A stretch of DNA of 30,057 bases, filler included, from an uncultured bacterium (GCA_964637655.1; 17 parts of 17 records of this genome joined end to end with filler, not necessarily neighbours in it); one strand, 5' to 3'; numbered from the whole stretch's first letter, positions 16,389 to 23,415 are shown. Program-made: numbers and translations. Notes: generated by a model from the sequence alone, not told the origin.

Positions 16389-16553
16389 GCGTGTCCTCCC
16401 CTGCGGGTGTACCATAGGGCGGGGGGCGGGGNNNNNNNNNNNNNNNNNNNNNNNNNNNNNNNNNNNNNNNNNNNNTTAATTAATTAANNNNNNNNNNNNN
16501 NNNNNNNNNNNNNNNNNNNNNNNNNNNNNNNTGTTCAGCATGCACGAACCATT

Positions 16554-16584
16554 CGGCATAATCCGGAGTTCGGCATTATGCCGC
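16554..16584 (-). mobile_element. Terminal inverted repeat of an inserted RIT-like element (end A)
   Basis: GCGGCATAATGCCGAACTCCGGATTATGCCG interrupts the integrase; 16556-16584 is the exact reverse complement of 21671-21699. Confidence 0.7.
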
Positions 16585-17432
16585 AGGTCATGCCAATGCA
16601 GGTCTTTGATACCTGCCTTTCGCTTTGCGACCTGCAAGGCTTTCCACATCCCCCGTTGCTTGATAATAGTTCCCGCTCGGTTGCGAAACAGATAACCACC
16701 TCCGGCAAGATTGTCCTTGTGCCGGGCGATAATGTCGGCCACCACTGGCACAATCGGGATAGCCAGCGGCTTATTGGTTTTTTGCTGCTGGATGACCAGC
16801 GTTCCCTGCTCGTAGTTGATGTGCTGTTCGGTAACGCGGGCCGCGTCTCCGAAGCGTAATCCTGTTAGCAGGCAGAAGTCGAAAAAATCGCGCAGGAAGT
16901 CTGGCAGAGCTTCGCGCAGCCGGACGATTTCCTCGTCCGATAGCACGCGTTCTCGGTGGTTAGTCGTCAGGTGCAGCCGGTGGAAGTCTATGGTCGTCGG
17001 CTCGACGTAGTTCTGTTGCGCCGCCACCCTCAAAATGTGGCGTAGGGCATCTATCTCAATGTTAACCGTTTTGTTCGCGCGCTGTTCCTTAAGCCGCCGC
17101 GCGATATAGCGCTTAATCAAATGCGTACCACTGATAAATGCTGACAGGCTTTCGCCGCCGAGGTACTTGGTCAGTGGCTTGACATTAATCTTGTCTCGCG
17201 AGTTTGTCGAGTATTCCCGCAAGTACGTCTGAATGAACCGTTCGAGGGTCATGTCGCGTCGCTGCTTCAGCTCCGCTTGTTGCTCGGTTCCGGCTACCAT
17301 TTCGTTGTACTTCCGCGTTGCCCAGGCGCGCGCAGCCTGGGACGAGATGAACCGCCGCTTGCGCCGAAGATAATTGAAACACACTATGGCCTCGAATGTC
17401 TCACGACCTACTTGCGTGATAACTATCCCCAT
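16584..17432 (-). pseudogene. Tyrosine integrase, N-terminal 283 codons, interrupted at the HDL|RH motif
   Basis: RERVLS, TGLRFGDA (catalytic R), QKT, DLHWHDLRH, then non-integrase sequence; AGGAGG RBS before ATG 17432; lower GC than host genes. Confidence 0.88.
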
Positions 17433-17576
17433 GCCCGTCCTCCTAATATCAACAGGCATATCTGACTGTTTTGGAAGGAATATTTTGCTTGCAGCAATGC
17501 GGCGTAAAACGCCTATTATTGAATAACATTTCCTAAAGAGGCATTCATGCTCCCTATTTATAGGAGGTGCCGGGTT

Positions 17577-17912
17577 ATGCAGAACCAGCTCATGAACGCC
17601 GCGGTCGCGGCGTCCCTGCCGCCCCTCTACTCGCAGGAGGCGAAGGGCGATGCGGCGCTCGCGATGGTGAAATACTTCTGCCTGTCATCCAACTGGACCT
17701 GGTACGCGACCGAATACGACCCGGTAGAGAAGACCTTTTTCGGGCTCGTCCACGGTTTCGAGGTCGAGCTGGGCTATTTCACGCTTGCGGAATTCGAGGA
17801 ACTGAACGCTTCGTCAGTATTTCCGGTCATCGAGCGGGACCTGTATTGGGTGCCGAAGAGCCTTGCAGACATAAGGCGGGAGATTGAGGCACAGGGTGGC
17901 GGCCGTCGGTGA
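17577..17912 (+). CDS. DUF2958-like protein (mobile-element associated)
   Basis: KYF...WTWYATE.D....FFGLVHGFEVELGYFTLAE...IERDLYW pattern; AGGAGGT RBS. Confidence 0.8.
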   Translation: MQNQLMNAAVAASLPPLYSQEAKGDAALAMVKYFCLSSNWTWYATEYDPVEKTFFGLVHGFEVELGYFTLAEFEELNASSVFPVIERDLYWVPKSLADIRREIEAQGGGRR

Positions 17913-18207
17913 AACGGATATTCGCCATCGGCGATACCCATCGCCTGATGATTATCCCGCCCGAGGGCTACGACCTGACCATCCATTTGGGCGATTATGT
18001 GGACTACTTCGACGTCGGATTGAATGACGAGAAGCTCGAACTATATAGGCGTCGCTTCGCCGAGATTCGACAGGCATACACGCATTACGTCATTGGGAAT
18101 CACGAGAAAATGTTCCTGAATCGGTACGGGCCGAATATTCTGGACGAGGAACTGCCGGAGTCGTTGACCATCCCTGTTGAGGGTATCAAGCTGCGGGCGA
18201 GCCATTA
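17909..18207 (+). CDS. Calcineurin-like metallophosphoesterase, N-terminal fragment
   Basis: IGDTH, HLGDYVD, GNHE motifs. Confidence 0.85.
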
Positions 18208-18307
18208 NNNNNNNNNNNNNNNNNNNNNNNNNNNNNNNNNNNNNNNNNNNNTTAATTAATTAANNNNNNNNNNNNNNNNNNNNNNNNNNNNNNNNNNNNN
18301 NNNNNNN

Positions 18308-18867
18308 CCGCCATCGTCGGCGCCTTTACCACCGATGCGCCTGACTTTATTTTTCCCGAACCGGCGCTGGGGGTGGCGCATACCGTCTTCTATGTCCGCG
18401 CGGACAACCCGTGGCGTTTTCGCGGGCTCGACTCGCTGGCCCGCATGAAACTCGGGGCAACGCAGGACTACAGCTACGGGGAACTCCTCGACGGGTACAT
18501 CCGCGCGCATGCCGGTGATACGGAGCGGCTCGAACTGCTCCGCGGCGATGACGTCACGGAGCGCAACCTGCGCAAACTGGCGCTTGGGCGTGTCGATGCG
18601 GTGGTCGATGTGCGCGAGGTGCTCGCATACAATGCCGTGTGCGCCGGACTGGCGGGTCGTTTTGCCGAGGCGGGCACCGTCTCCACTGACCGGGTCTACA
18701 TCGCGTTTTCACCCGCGCGCGCGGCGTCGGTCACGTCGAACTCGAACGGACGGTTGCNNNNNNNNNNGGCGCAGGCCCGGCTGCTGGCGCCGGGTGTGGC
18801 GCGCCTGCGCCGCAGCGGCGAACTGCAGCGCCTGCTCGATCGCTACGGGTTGCGTGACTGGCAATGA
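18308..18867 (+). CDS. Periplasmic substrate-binding protein (family 3-like), 5'-truncated, with internal gap
   Basis: LGATQDYSYG, KLALGRVDAVV, YIAFS, LRRSGELQRLLDRYG. Confidence 0.8.
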
Positions 18868-19946
18868 GGCCAGCGCCCGTTTTGCTGGTGCAGCGCCTGC
18901 TGCGTGGCCGGCGGCGCGCCCTGCTGGTGCTGGTTTTTCTCGCGATGGCTTTTGCCCTGTTCGCTGTGTCCTATGAGCGGGAGCGGGCGGGGCAGCGGCA
19001 GGCGGCGGCGGCGCGGCATGCGCGTGAACTGGGCGCGGCGTTGTGGAACTTCGATCAGGGTACGGCCGGCGATTATCTCGGGGTCGCCGCCGAACTGGAA
19101 AACTACGAACGGGTTGATGTCCGTGACAGCAGCGGGGAAGCATTCATTACCGTGGCCGGCCCGGCGGAGGGGCCACTCGACCGCGCGCTGCATCTGCTCG
19201 GCCTTATCCCCGTGCGCGAGGTGGCGCATCCGGTCACCTACCGCGGTCAGGTCATCGGCGAATTCCGCGCGCGGGCGCGCGACCGGGCGGTCTATACCTA
19301 TGCCTACCTGCTCGCGCTGCTGCTCTTCATGCAGCTGGCGCTGACGTCATACCTGCGCACGCTCGGCATCAAGCGCGACCTCGAGGAATATGTGCTGGCG
19401 CAAACTGCCGACCTGCTGCGACTCAACGAGGAGTTGCGGCAGAAAAACGAGGAACTGAAGGTGCTTGACGAACTCAAGACCAACCTGCTGGCCAATGTCT
19501 CGCACGAACTGCGCACGCCGCTGGTCGCGGTGCGCGGCTACACCGAACTGATTGTCGACGGACAGTCGGGGCCGGTTACGGACCGGCAGCGGCAGCAGTT
19601 GCAGACGTCGCTGCGCAGTATCGACCGTCTCACCCGTCTCATCGACGACCTGCTGCAGTATTCGCTGATGGAACGCGGGAGCATGACCTTCCGCATGCAG
19701 GCGTGTGAATTCGGGCGGGTGGCGCGTGAGACGGCGGAGCAGGCACGGCACCTCATGGAGCACCGGCACCTGCAACTGGTGACGGCTATCCCGCCGGCGC
19801 CGCTGCCGGTCACCGGCGACCCGGCACGGCTGGCGCAGGTGATCGCCAATCTGCTCGACAACGCGGCGAAGTTCACCCCGGCCGGCGGGACGGTGACGCT
19901 GACGCTGACGGCGGAACCCGCGCAGGTGCGGCTGACGGTCAGTGAT
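18864..19946 (+). CDS. Membrane sensor histidine kinase, 3'-truncated
   Basis: Two TM segments, SHELRTPL H-box, QVIANLLDNAAKFT N-box; similarity ends at TVSD. Confidence 0.9.
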
Positions 19947-20079
19947 AAAATGCATCCCAGGCATTTTCGGTCTTCCATTNNNNNNNNNNNNNNNNNNNNN
20001 NNNNNNNNNNNNNNNNNNNNNNNTTAATTAATTAANNNNNNNNNNNNNNNNNNNNNNNNNNNNNNNNNNNNNNNNNNNN

Positions 20080-20459
20080 CCGATGATGACCAGCGCCAGC
20101 ACGCGCATGATGAAACGCCCGCGCCGCAGCCCGCCCCGCAGCAGGAACGGGGGCGGGAAGGGGTAGAGGTAGAAGGTCAGGCCGATGTCGAGCGCCACCA
20201 GCGCGGTGATCTGCGGGCGGAACGACGGGAGCAGGAAGAGCGCGATGAGGTAGATGGCCAGCCCGCAGTAGAGCATCAGTTGCGCGAAGAAATAGTGACG
20301 CCGCGAAAAAACCGCGAAGCGCAGCAGTTCGGTGCGGTGTTCGTCGCAGCAGTAGGGAATTCCCTTGCGCGGCCAGACCCCGCTGCCGTCCCACGGCAGT
20401 GCGCCGCCATCGCCGACCGGCCCGTTGCACCAGGCGCAGCGCAGCGTCCCGTCGCTCAC
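20080..20459 (-). CDS. Hypothetical membrane protein with N-terminal Cys cluster (CxxC...YCC), 3'-truncated
   Basis: CAWC and YCCDEH followed by hydrophobic helices; overlaps the upstream stop codon. Confidence 0.55.
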
Positions 20460-20917
20460 GGCTGCGCCGCCAGCGACGCGGCCGGGCGCGCTTCGTTCCG
20501 GCCCGGGTGCATGATGCGATCATCGCCGGTGTCGAAGGCGCCGTCCGGGCCCGCGCTCTGCACGGTGAACCAGAGCGGGGCGAAGCTGACCGCGTAGGGT
20601 GTGCCCCACGGGTCGATCCGCACATCATCAGCGGTGCCGTGCTGCTGCTGCGCGGCCGCCGCGAACTCCTCCGCCGAAACGGGAAACCGCTGCTGCAGGT
20701 CGAAGTGCCGGTTGAACCACTTCGAGTAGAGGAACATCTGCTCCCGGTACCGCGATTCCGCCTTCAGGTTGGCCGGCAGGTAGAACGACAGCGTACGCCC
20801 CTCCTGCGCCGCGAGGCCGAGCGCGACGATGGTCAGGGTCCCGAGAATAAGGACAAGGCGGTAGCGCGTCCGCCATGACGGTTGGGCGTTTTCGCTCATC
20901 TTCTTCACCAGCGGCAT
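20456..20917 (-). CDS. Pseudopilin GspG-like (T2SSG C-terminal motif) protein
   Basis: N-terminal TM helix; DPWGTPY and SAGPDGAFDTGDD motifs. Confidence 0.65.
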   Translation of the reverse strand: MPLVKKMSENAQPSWRTRYRLVLILGTLTIVALGLAAQEGRTLSFYLPANLKAESRYREQMFLYSKWFNRHFDLQQRFPVSAEEFAAAAQQQHGTADDVRIDPWGTPYAVSFAPLWFTVQSAGPDGAFDTGDDRIMHPGRNEARPAASLAAQP

Positions 20918-20983
20918 CTTATATCAGCAATTCCGGCCTGTCAACATTTTTCTGCATATTGTGAAACAAAACTGACGCCGATA

Positions 20984-20992
20984 TGGTATAAT
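20984..20992 (+). promoter_or_regulatory. Extended -10 promoter element (TGGTATAAT) for ssrA
   Basis: TGnTATAAT in an AT-rich intergenic region about 45 nt before the mature tmRNA 5' end. Confidence 0.6.
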
Positions 20993-21035
20993 ATAACAGC
21001 AGGCGGCAGTCGTGCCGCCACGTTCTTAGACAAGT

Positions 21036-21385
21036 GGGGGCGTTACTGGGATTCGACGGGTGTCAGGAGGTTGCGGGTCGCGTGTCGAGTTCGCCGCGGG
21101 TCTCGTAAAAAAGCGGCAACCTAGTTACTCGCCAACGACGAATTGGCTCTGGCGGCTTAACGCCGCCACCGTGCCCGGAGGTCTGGTCATGACCAATGGG
21201 GAACACGGCCGCAACATGACCCGGTCGCAAGGGTTCGCCTGATACCTGAGCGGCTGTACTAAATCGGGCTCGGTCGGGCGGTGTCGCCACGGACGCCGAA
21301 CGATCTAAACTAAACGTGGATACACACGTAGTGACCGCCGCTGAATGCATTCCGGACAGGGGTTCGACTCCCCTCGCCTCCACCA
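21036..21385 (+). ncRNA. ssrA: tmRNA, one-piece, 350 nt; tag peptide (A)ANDELALAA at 21131-21160
   Basis: 5' GGGGGCG...GATTCGAC; 3' T-arm GGTTCGACTCC and CGCCTCCACCA; acceptor stem with G3-U wobble; tag frame ending ALAA-TAA. Confidence 0.97.
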
Positions 21386-21649
21386 CTTCTTTTCTCTCTC
21401 ACTCCGTCGGTAATTGCCTGTTTTTGCTATCGTTTCTGTTGGTCCGTTTGAGGCCCGAAATGGCTCATTGCCGCTGGAGAATGCCCCACCGGTGCCCCAT
21501 TTTCCACCGCATTTTTCGAGCAACTGCCGCTTATGTTCCAGGGAAACATTGACGTAAAGAGCCGCAACCTTGGGCGTGTCCCCGAGCAGTGACGCAAGCA
21601 CATCCCGGGGGGCGCCGGCCTGAACCAGACGCGTCGCAAAGGTGTGACG
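21305..21649 (-). pseudogene. Tyrosine integrase C-terminal fragment (RHTFATRL...LLGDT...Y), reading into the tmRNA 3' end
   Basis: RHTFATRLVQAGA...LLG...ALYV box II with candidate catalytic Tyr; adjacent to and convergent on ssrA. Confidence 0.85.
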
Positions 21650-21650
21650 A

Positions 21651-21699
21651 TTATGCCGCATTCGGCATAAGCGGCATAATGCCGAACTCCGGATTATGC
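21651..21699 (+). mobile_element. Terminal inverted repeat plus interrupted palindrome of an inserted RIT-like element (end B)
   Basis: TTATGCCG-CATT-CGGCATAA (21651-21670) followed by a 29-bp IR (21671-21699) matching 16556-16584. Confidence 0.7.
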
Positions 21700-21831
21700 N
21701 NNNNNNNNNNNNNNNNNNNNNNNNNNNNNNNNNNNNNNNNNNNTTAATTAATTAANNNNNNNNNNNNNNNNNNNNNNNNNNNNNNNNNNNNNNNNNNNNG
21801 CCATGCCGGCGATCATCGGTCCGCCTACCTG

Positions 21832-21906
21832 GCCGATGACGAGGATCATCAGGCTGATGACGGTGGCCAGAACCGGGCGGCGGATGAAGATGTCGGTAAA
21901 ATGCAT
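21832..21906 (-). CDS. RND efflux permease (AcrB/MexW-like), first 25 codons only
   Basis: Manual translation MHFTDIFIRRPVLATVISLMILVIG; follows an RND adaptor. Confidence 0.8.
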
Positions 21907-21920
21907 GGCGGGTCTTTGGG

Positions 21921-22350
21921 TTATTTATCTTCCGGTTTCGGATTTGGGTCGTCTTTGGGCAGGATTTCGTTAGTCACGATGATCGGCGTGCCGTTGCGCA
22001 GTTTAAGCTGTCCCGATGTCACGACCTCGTCGCCTTCCTTGATGCCTTTAATGACCGCGATTTGGTCGCCGCGCATCTTGCCGGTTTCAACGAACGATTG
22101 AACCGCGATCAGCTTTCCGTCCTTGTCCTTCGCGACGACATAGACCGTATTGCCATAGGGGTTGAACGTAATGGCCGTCTGCGGCAACGTCAGCTGCTTT
22201 TGCGGCGCGCCCACGACGCTGACGATATGCGCGAACATGCCCGGCAGAAGTTTGTGTTCCGGATTTTTAAATATGGCGCGAACCTGAATATTGCGGGTCG
22301 ATTCCTCGACCTTTGAATTGATGGACTGAATTTCGCCTTCAAAAGTCGCG
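21921..22350 (-). CDS. RND periplasmic adaptor (MFP) C-terminal fragment, joined in frame to a GT9 fragment
   Basis: STRNIQVRA..NPEHKLLPGMFA, LPQTAITFNPYG, GDEVVTSGQLKL. Confidence 0.85.
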
Positions 22351-23009
22351 CCCGGAACCGCGTCGGCAATGGCCTGTGTCGCGGCGTGTTCGTCGGCCGA
22401 CCCGATAAGCAGCCGCCGCGCCTGCGGGAACTGCCGCAGCAGCGCGGCCCACGCCGCGGCCGGCCAGCGCTTGCTCGCCCAGCGCGCGTTCGGGTTGGCC
22501 ACCAGCAGCGGACCGTTACCCGGGCAGAGCGCGGCGAGTTTCGCCGTGACGCCCTCGCGCGGTGCGCCCGTCACCCCGTACTGCGGCGGCGTGCTGCGGT
22601 CGGTGCCGAACGCGGTACCGAGGCGGCGGTAGCGCAGCAGCGCATGCTCGTCCCACCCCGCCGCGGGGAGTCGCTCGTCGTACAACCAGGCCACCGGCTC
22701 GCGTGGCAGGTCTAGCCCGACGAGGCGACCGCCCGCGCACTTCGCGGGGAGCGCCGACTTCCAGAGCCCCTGCGCGTCGATGACCGCGGCGAACTGTTCG
22801 CGGCGCAGCGCGGCAACCGTTGCTGTCGCGCCGCTGAGCCCCTGCCACGCATGCACGCGGCTGACCGCAGTGCAGGCGGTGACCAGCGGCGCATACGCGG
22901 CATTGACCAGCCAGTGCACCTCGTGTCCCGCGCGGGCCAGGTCAGCGGCCAGCGGCAGCGTCATCACCACATCACCCAGCGCGGAGAGCCGCACGATGAG
23001 GACTTTCAC
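22351..23009 (-). CDS. LPS heptosyltransferase (GT9, WaaC/WaaF-like), N-terminal two thirds
   Basis: MKVLIVRLSALGDVV, IDAQGLWKSA, PNARWASKRWP. Confidence 0.88.
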
Positions 23010-23092
23010 CGTTGCCGCGCTCCGCGGCGCGTCAGCCGCGCCGCATGGTGAACCGGGAGACGCACGATGAGCAGTTTCATCGCCGTGCGCCT

Positions 23093-23415
23093 TTATGCCG
23101 CCACGGCGCGGTAGACGTCTTCGAGTTGATCGAGCGTCGCCTGCCAGGTGTAGCGGTGCAGTGCCTCGTCATGACCCGCCGCGCCGAGGCGCGCGCGCAG
23201 CGGTGCGTCCGCGAGCAGCCGCGCAATGGCGTCAGCCAGTGCCGTGCTGTCATTGGGCTCGACCAGCAGCCCGGTCTGCCCGTCGCTGACCAGTTCCGCG
23301 ACGTTGGGGATGCGCGTGGCGACCACGGGCACGCGTTGCGCCCACGCCTGCAGCAGCGCCTGCGGCACCCCTTCCCCCCCGGTGGAGGGGTGGGCGAGCA
23401 CATCGAGCGCGGCGA
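23093..23415 (-). CDS. GT4 glycosyltransferase C-terminal fragment
   Basis: PS..EGVPQALLQA...PVVAT.....ELVSDGQTGLLV. Confidence 0.85.

Follow-up and report, generated by a model that had tools for sequence, protein, structure and literature searches.

The window analysed here is a 30,057-base stretch of DNA from an uncultured bacterium (GCA_964637655.1), made up of 17 contigs of 1542–1786 bp each, which are ordered by length and separated by N/TTAATTAATTAA linkers. Two of these, which we have designated contig A (16532–18207) and contig C (20080–21699), each end in a fragment of an integrase gene that runs into a repeat resembling the end of a recombinase in trio (RIT) element. The two fragments probably derive from paralogous integrases of one family, each with its own RIT insertion, rather than being the halves of one gene. 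The features at the two junctions are listed below.

16532–16553, minus strand: putative RIT interior, the 22 nt next to the terminal repeat; end of contig A
16554–16581, minus strand: HP1, the 28-bp RIT terminal repeat, N-side junction copy, GCATAATGCCG-AACT-CCGGATTATGCCG; exact inverted copy of 21674–21699
16582–16583, minus strand: CG dinucleotide, putative crossover/overlap region, present at both junctions
16584–17432, minus strand: N-part of integrase A, 283 codons up to ...HWHDL; an alternative ATG lies upstream at 17459
21036–21385, plus strand: tmRNA gene (ssrA), tag ANDELALAA, detected by ARAGORN and by Rfam RF00023 (146 bits, full length)
21506–21649, minus strand: integrase C, C-terminal 48 residues with homology, RHTFATRL...LGD...Y...
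21647–21650, minus strand: TCGT, the 4 nt between HP2 and the His codon CAC (21644–21646)
21651–21670, plus strand: HP2 palindrome, TTATGCCG-CATT-CGGCATAA, C-side junction
21671–21673, plus strand: GCG, 3-nt spacer from HP2 to HP1; a Logan unitig (X3 record 14) shows HP2-GCG-HP1 joined to the contig A-side interior
21674–21699, plus strand: first 26 of the 28 nt of HP1; contig C terminates here

A 29-mer of contig A (16556–16584, minus strand) was repeated exactly, in inverted orientation, at the end of contig C (21671–21699, plus strand), giving an inverted identity of 29/29 in the size range of ~28–34 bp terminal repeats. These were the only two copies in the window and none were expected from 100 shuffles. 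The 8-mer TTATGCCG occurred six times in the window compared to 0.71 expected, and five of the six were at the two contig ends. We defined two units from these ends: HP1, a 28-bp unit of the form GCAT(A/T)ATGCCG-N4-CCGGATTATGCCG, and HP2, an 8-4-8 palindrome of the form TTATGCCG-N4-CGGCATAA, which adjoined one of the two terminal repeats. A first-pass annotation of the window had pointed out both the 29-bp reverse complement and the palindrome at 21651–21670; both were recovered, the former being beyond chance. The N-side junction read CTG-CG|GCAT... and the C-side junction read HP2-TCGT-CAC. The junction CG together with the G of the element rebuilt an Arg codon.

The open reading frame (ORF) of integrase A read from ...HWHDL directly into the terminal repeat. 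It matched positions 2–131 of the 172 of PF00589 (E 5.3e-12; 46.3 bits, cutoff 27.1) and encoded the box I Arg and the box II HxxR, without the downstream His and Tyr. A HMMER scan of representatives revealed its best relatives, P0001–P0005, to be proteins of 328–371 aa with 34–40% identity; no relatives were found by a word-index protein search, in metagenome contigs or in viral contigs. Integrase C matched PF00589 at positions 133–155 (16.2 bits, under the family cutoff) and had 85% identity to P0151, 85% to P0152 and 77% to P0002, in each case over 47–48 aa at the C-terminus of a full-length PF00589 protein. The description of an N-part running from ...HWHDL into the repeat and of a C-part starting at RHTFATRL was thereby upheld, and the reported tmRNA adjacency applies to the contig C piece, which abuts and overlaps the 3′-end of the tmRNA. 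The 397-aa integrase proposed from the two pieces is a length of ORF only, as the C-part shows homology over no more than its first 48 residues, and 328–371 aa is the length of the relatives.

Three further features lie beside the integrase fragments.

17547–17912, plus strand: DUF2958 gene (Pfam PF11171, E 3.6e-9), a cargo gene of island or plasmid type in divergent orientation to integrase A
17909–18207, plus strand: 5′ part of a calcineurin-like phosphoesterase gene (Pfam PF00149, E 1.3e-6), which runs off contig A
21305–21505, minus strand: continuation of the integrase C ORF without homology, antisense over the tmRNA 3′-end at 21305–21385 (81 nt)

The integrase C ORF ran for 66 residues past its homology. 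Its relatives stop 5–37 residues past the part aligned to integrase C, and their tails are unrelated and of differing length (P0151, 413 aa; P0152, 337 aa), as would be expected if the 3′-end of the gene crosses the attachment site. No second copy of the 25-nt tmRNA 3′-end was found in the window, where the rest of the island is not present.

RIT ends in plasmids and genomes

RIT elements were described in 2009–2013. They carry ritA, ritB and ritC (Van Houdt et al. 2012, PMC3414803), and a footnote to Table 1 of PMC10214605 gives their terminal inverted repeats as 34 bp; the length of HP1 agrees with the RIT repeat length where these two papers state it. According to these papers RIT movement has not been reproduced, and Table 1 of PMC10214605 lists target specificity as not tested.

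Comparison of the contig A end with PLSDB by blastn matched 68 plasmid records, mostly alphaproteobacterial, and the contig A HP1 showed 81–91% identity to the plasmid RIT ends. Four of the matches were opened. In three of them (L001, L002 and L004) the matched end abutted three annotated tandem, overlapping tyrosine recombinase genes and had the HP1/HP2 layout of the window; these plasmids are Acidiphilium multivorum pACMV1, Rhizobium lusitanum p_3 and Agrobacterium tumefaciens pAtCFBP6625a. In the fourth, from Bradyrhizobium barranii (L003), the annotation gives two recombinases, next to a group II intron. Among the annotated matches of the contig A end, the RIT of pACMV1 (NC_015178.1, L001) ranked best (42 nt, 85.7%). 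Both of its ends have HP1, one also has HP2, and its three tandem recombinases comprise 330, 313 and 403 codons. It differs in that it lies in an ArdC-type zincin gene, at HELG|H, instead of an integrase. The earlier suggestion that RIT ends are rich in TTATGCCG/CGGCATAA was confirmed on the annotated RITs. The AATGG following HP1 in contig A is like the ritC-side ends of L001, L004 and L071, to which side the contig A end is tentatively assigned.

A search of GTDB species genomes with a degenerate HP1 pattern found at least 119 stretches; the counts of HP1 pairs, flanks and flank classes in these loci given here and below are all among the matches listed. The stretches spanned Proteobacteria, Actinomycetota, Acidobacteriota, Myxococcota, Verrucomicrobiota, Planctomycetota, Bacillota and others. 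Their layout was that of inverted HP1 copies at both ends, with HP2 between HP1 and the flank at one end. The spacing of the inverted HP1 pair was 3331–3424 bp in 18 of 21 cases. Between the repeats L013 encodes ORFs of 420, 385 and 332 aa, all of which match PF00589, and L071 encodes ORFs of 413, 318 and 332 aa.

In L013 (CAVWWD010000009.1, a Rokubacteria metagenome-assembled genome, MAG) a P4-type integrase is split at HDLR|H on a single 438-kb contig. Its N-part contains Arm-DNA-bind_3, Phage_int_M and PF00589 2–132 and ends ...LHDLR, and its C-part reads RHSYAS...RYAH. The order is N-part, HP1, trio, HP1′, HP2 and C-part, so that the N-part adjoins HP1 and the C-part adjoins HP1-HP2, as in the window, whose junction layout matches that of L013. 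The trio of L001 lies in the opposite direction to that of L013 relative to the HP2 side. L013 differs from the window in the family of its integrase and in the HP1 centre, which is GGTC compared to AACT. No tmRNA was noticed in the 8-kb L013 locus, in which no tmRNA search was made.

Judged by its sequence, the repeat in which both contigs end is a RIT-type terminus. The 28-bp HP1, the presence of HP2, the 3.33–3.42 kb spacing of its relatives and a multicopy depth (see below) fit the RIT description in PMC3414803. The window differs in that the trio is not visible in it, and the RIT copies compared here share a ...G-CA core at conserved His codons. RITs as a kind are already known, and the window adds one or two insertions that are ordinary in themselves. 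Like RITs, Tn554, GInts and SEs combine several tyrosine recombinases, are site-specific and lack the target duplications of DDE-type elements, as far as PMC10214605 describes them; according to the same description they differ in having an extra non-recombinase gene (TnpC, GinD and Srap) and no 34-bp terminal inverted repeats of the RIT type. Two other explanations of the break were rejected. An insertion sequence of the DDE type does not apply as the target duplication is nothing beyond the 2-nt shared core and the ends match RITs, and an SSV-type partition of the integrase by its own attP does not apply as the break is flanked by RIT repeats and not by tmRNA sequence.

The interior of the element is not in the window, and the ends could belong instead to a miniature, non-autonomous derivative, in which the two HP1/HP2 ends enclose no recombinase genes, or to a solo end, mobilised in trans by RITs located elsewhere. 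Inverted HP1 copies just ~335–370 bp apart were found in L037 (50–384) and L121 (75–442), which may be miniature gene-less RIT derivatives, and Logan unitigs break 31 nt past the contig A end, which suggests variation among copies. However, 21 of 23 inverted HP1 pairs were full length or longer and the ends closest in sequence (L001, L004 and L071) bound complete trios, which makes a miniature improbable here.

Target sites of RIT copies

In total, 146 HP1 ends were oriented, of which three had flanks that were too short. The flank followed HP1 directly at 75 ends and HP2 lay between HP1 and the flank at 68; the 8-4-8 palindrome was therefore present at 68/143 scored RIT ends. Flanks were classed by regular expressions on in-frame translations after removal of duplicates; the labels are our own and some flanks are misfiled, such as two HNH-type flanks in the DUF3489-like class. 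The classes were as follows.

HP1-direct flanks (72 unique): 17 ArdC-like, HExx|H; 7 tyrosine recombinase, Hx[LF]R|H; 7 IS256-like, (Q/R)(R/T)Cxx|H; a few of other classes; 33 unclassified
HP2 flanks (65 unique): 16 DUF3489-like; 14 ArdC-like; 8 integrase C-parts; 7 IS256-like; 20 unclassified

The 65 unique HP2 flanks had C at position +5 after HP2 in 64, A at position +6 in 64 and CA in 63. In 54 of the 65 a CAY at this point was an in-frame His codon. The HP2 end in the window, with 4 nt followed by CAC, has this layout in common with other RIT copies. The His codons concerned belong to ArdC (HExx|H), integrases (HxLR|H) and IS256-type transposases (QRCxx|H). Within integrases, the N-flank ended at PF00589 position 131 (L006) or 132 (L077 and L013); that of L095 aligned to position 119 only and that of L043 had no Pfam match. 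All seven C-flanks tested started at position 134, and the break at 132|134 recurs across phyla. RIT insertion into integrases, which the first-pass annotation had mentioned, was thus found at the same integrase codon in 7/72 N-side and 8/65 C-side unique flanks. Taken on these flanking sequences, RIT copies in many phyla are located at a ...NNN-G-CA core on a conserved His codon of mobile-element genes. No such target rule was found in the literature searched; target-site data may already be in print elsewhere.

Several flanks fell outside these classes or had unusual arrangements. The HP1 ends of L121 (~60–102), L042, L052 and L062 abut ...GGTTCAAATCCTCT|GCAT or ...AAAAA(T/C)(C/G)CTCT|GCAT; the former resembles a tRNA T-arm/3′-end and may be another target class. 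The C-flanks of L047 (6956–7105), L076 (132–284) and L071 (1644–1793) read HSFATHL(L/I)(E/D)SG.DIRT(V/I)QELLGH...YTHV..., continuing as ...LNRGGRGVRSP in L047 and L076. These resemble tails of integron integrases, and intI-type genes may thus be further targets of RIT disruption. In MAGs of Vicinamibacterales, RIT copies (L010, L048, L060 and L110) lie at ...RRLRQWL(G/C)RK|H HKARSGLY..., with several copies in one genome, and this flank resembles the C-terminal part of reverse transcriptases from group II introns. Both flanks of L015, a 3817-bp contig, are integrase N-parts (HTLR|H) that face the element, and L092 has an identical ArdC N-part on both flanks; these two loci suggest either that copies have recombined or that the assembly has collapsed across a multicopy element.

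One integrase gene or two

Eight sequencing runs contained part of contig A, and Logan contigs of X1–X3 (one wastewater study) and X5 (a groundwater study) were aligned to it. Stretches of contig A that remained uncovered (e.g. 16588–16768 in X2) are holes in the contig data and were not counted as evidence. The word depth of the element end (16532–16587) was 31.9 in X1, 21.1 in X2 and 20.7 in X3, compared to 7.6 or less elsewhere on contig A. This is 4–6 times the rest of contig A in three runs and was accompanied by at least three different neighbours, depth in a metagenome not being equal to copies per genome. Logan unitigs in three runs covered 16532–16584 at a depth of 19–34 and reached 31 nt further inward. 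The raised word depth therefore indicates an element that is multicopy in the community, and the earlier proposal of a multicopy element is correct at that level (end depth 20–34 compared to ~3–7 for the rest of contig A). In two high-depth unitigs, X1 record 1 and X3 record 14, HP1 continued into HP2, a configuration expected for a circle, a tandem junction or copies with HP2 on that side.

The same end was joined to a different flank in X2 record 9 (851 nt, aligned at 16555–16586), which had a depth similar to contig A and read ...GIAKYATVHTLR|H (...YATVHTLR|H). This flank belongs to a third integrase gene, again interrupted at this codon, so that several integrases have been hit in the community. 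Two records passed through the contig A site without the element: X3 record 15, with no mismatches over 16579–16649, and X5 record 19 (838 nt), which was ~90% identical. The empty-site allele of integrase A in X3 and X5 reads CTG CGG CAC ACG..., encoding HDLRHTLATTLSES (...HDL RHTLATTLSES). An empty site, as predicted in the first-pass annotation, therefore exists, although its sequence is not the predicted CAT GAC CT[G/T] CGT CAC. Contig C reads RHTFATRLVQ (RHTFATRLVQAG), which differs from the empty-site continuation in both protein and DNA.

These data bear on the join of contigs A and C into one integrase that had been proposed, according to which a single RIT insertion split one ssrA-adjacent integrase and the two contigs are its halves. 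The breaks are complementary (PF00589 2–131 and 133–155) and the coordinates on relatives abut with exactly the missing Leu between them (e.g. P0002 25–280 and 282–329). HP1 is identical in both, even in the variable 4 nt at its centre. The polarity fits, the N side being at HP1 and the C side at HP2 as in L013, the topology tmRNA → int → cargo is compatible and the GC content at third codon positions (GC3) is similar in the two pieces. The join was nevertheless not supported and we consider it unlikely. The uninterrupted integrase A allele, present in two studies, continues unlike contig C. At least three integrase genes have been hit by the element in the community, and a matching break point is expected without linkage because the element targets this codon in several of them. 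As the contigs are sorted by length, the nearness of contigs A and C in the window is uninformative on linkage.

The identities of the two pieces to the same proteins are also discordant. The C-part identities to P0151, P0152 and P0002 (85%, 85% and 77%) compare with N-part identities of 36%, 36% and 40%. Three real pairs among these proteins had C-part identities of 79–83% with N-part identities of 57–58%, and real pairs with N-part identities as low as 36–40% had C-part identities of 25–58%. A hybrid of contigs A and C would therefore be unlike a natural member of the family. Comparison of both halves with homologues, which had been put forward as a check, gave a divided answer: the five top relatives are the same and are matched at abutting coordinates, whereas the C-part and N-part identities to the same proteins disagree. 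The core differences (G vs T after HP2 and CGG vs CGT) were rejected as an argument against the join because the contiguous L086, in one IS256-type gene, shows a like mismatch.

Two RIT insertions in two paralogous integrases therefore remain the probable explanation, and several observations weigh against it. P0001–P0005, the best relatives of the N-part, are also among the best matches of the C-part, at abutting coordinates. Their GC3 is 0.62–0.67 compared to 0.88 in host genes, as one gene would predict; by GC/GC3, 0.55/0.67 and 0.59/0.62 for the two pieces, the hypotheses were not separated. The discordance argument uses three close pairs and the empty-site continuation compared is 30 letters long. 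No record of X1–X3 or X5 spans the occupied contig A junction, for which the window assembly is the sole source. The exact HP1 28-mers of this element had no matches in GTDB genomes or in JGI metagenome contigs, and a scan of 36 ORFs on the other contigs of the window revealed no PF00589 match and so no RIT trio.

At least one contig of the bin (21800–23415) appears chimeric and the occupied contig A junction was uncovered by the aligned run contigs, both of which would allow for chimeric joins at the repeat with no integrase truly interrupted. Such an artefact is very improbable: the gene without the insertion has just ~6 nt in common with the element where they meet, not enough for a k-mer join. 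In addition, the independent unitig X2 record 9 contains an equivalent junction to another integrase, and junctions of identical architecture are found in finished plasmids and in MAGs from long reads.

Proposed integration and its consequences

We propose that the element would be ~3.35 kb long and carry ritA-ritB-ritC, three tandem tyrosine recombinases, with HP1 at both ends and HP2 at one end, the trio being placed between these ends by analogy with its relatives. It would split box II, the catalytic HxLR|H motif, precisely where the Arg codon meets the His codon. Of the two contigs, contig A would be an N-side junction (flank|HP1), from an insertion in the integrase next to the DUF2958 and phosphoesterase cargo, and contig C a C-side junction (HP1-HP2|flank), from an insertion in the integrase next to ssrA. 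The break points would coincide because the element is site-specific.

The three bases outside HP2 were the same as the three between HP2 and HP1, read away from HP2, in about half of the HP2 ends. Joined ends would therefore form a long palindrome, HP1′-NNN-HP2-N′N′N′-HP1, which the excised circle is predicted to carry as its attP. The shared junction bases numbered six in L001 (GGGGCA) and L013 (GCGGCA) and two to three in L086 and the window. Insertion may accordingly be a conservative exchange with a target that shares the short ...G-CA core, with no target duplication beyond the 2–6 shared bases. HP2 was always on the His-codon side of the target and adjoined ritA (L001) or the ritC end (L013 and L071). 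This fits a conservative exchange of the tyrosine recombinase kind on either side of HP2, as deduced from the junction sequences: a crossover putatively on one side of HP2 would leave HP2 on the His-codon side, and the trio may face either way.

With the element in place both integrases are cut short ahead of their downstream His and catalytic Tyr. Of the ssrA-adjacent integrase on contig C only the last 48 homologous residues remain, and the ssrA island has probably lost this integrase. The insertion could be reversible because the recombination is conservative, and a reversible switch by excision, as envisaged in the first-pass annotation, is speculation. Genes split by excisable elements that act as switches are known from the sigK skin element and from ‘active lysogeny’. 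As in those cases, excision by a conservative recombinase could restore the frame, and an empty allele coexists in related samples. The present case differs in that nothing points to regulated or developmental excision, and the empty allele may simply never have been invaded; for X3, a lineage that was never invaded is equally possible.

A wider proposal is that this widespread RIT lineage is a site-specific parasite of other mobile elements, with a palindromic attP, NNN-G-CA targets and a reversible insertion that would turn the mobility of islands, the ssrA island among them, off and now and then on again; as a whole we regard it as tentative and somewhat doubtful. The attP would then be a ~90-bp perfect palindrome with six TTATGCCG boxes, two per HP1 and two in HP2, possibly one box for each of RitA, RitB and RitC on each half. 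The targets would be the His-motif codons of integrases, ArdC antirestriction proteins, IS256-type transposases and HNH proteins, presumably together with integron-type integrase tails. If the integrases, antirestriction genes and transposases of other mobile elements are preferred victims of RITs, this would be a route to the fixation of islands and prophages, and RITs would also offer a handle on why three recombinases are needed. The analysis provides defined HP1/HP2 ends, a predicted palindromic junction, an observed empty site and a recurrent break at 132|134. For annotation, HxLR-truncated integrase fragments beside TTATGCCG-rich repeats are to be read as RIT junctions, and matching breaks alone are no ground for pairing fragments across contigs.

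Two observations concern other contigs of the window. In contig 21800–23415 the GC content changes from ~0.55 to ~0.75 near 22350, and an ORF at 21921–23009 (minus strand) joins Glyco_transf_9 (residues 66–217) and HlyD_D23 (residues 211–260) in one frame. This contig is probably chimeric, and its appearance indicates that misjoins exist in the assembly. Contig 18308–19979 contains a scaffold gap of 10 N (18759–18768) in a periplasmic-binding-like ORF upstream of a histidine-kinase gene.

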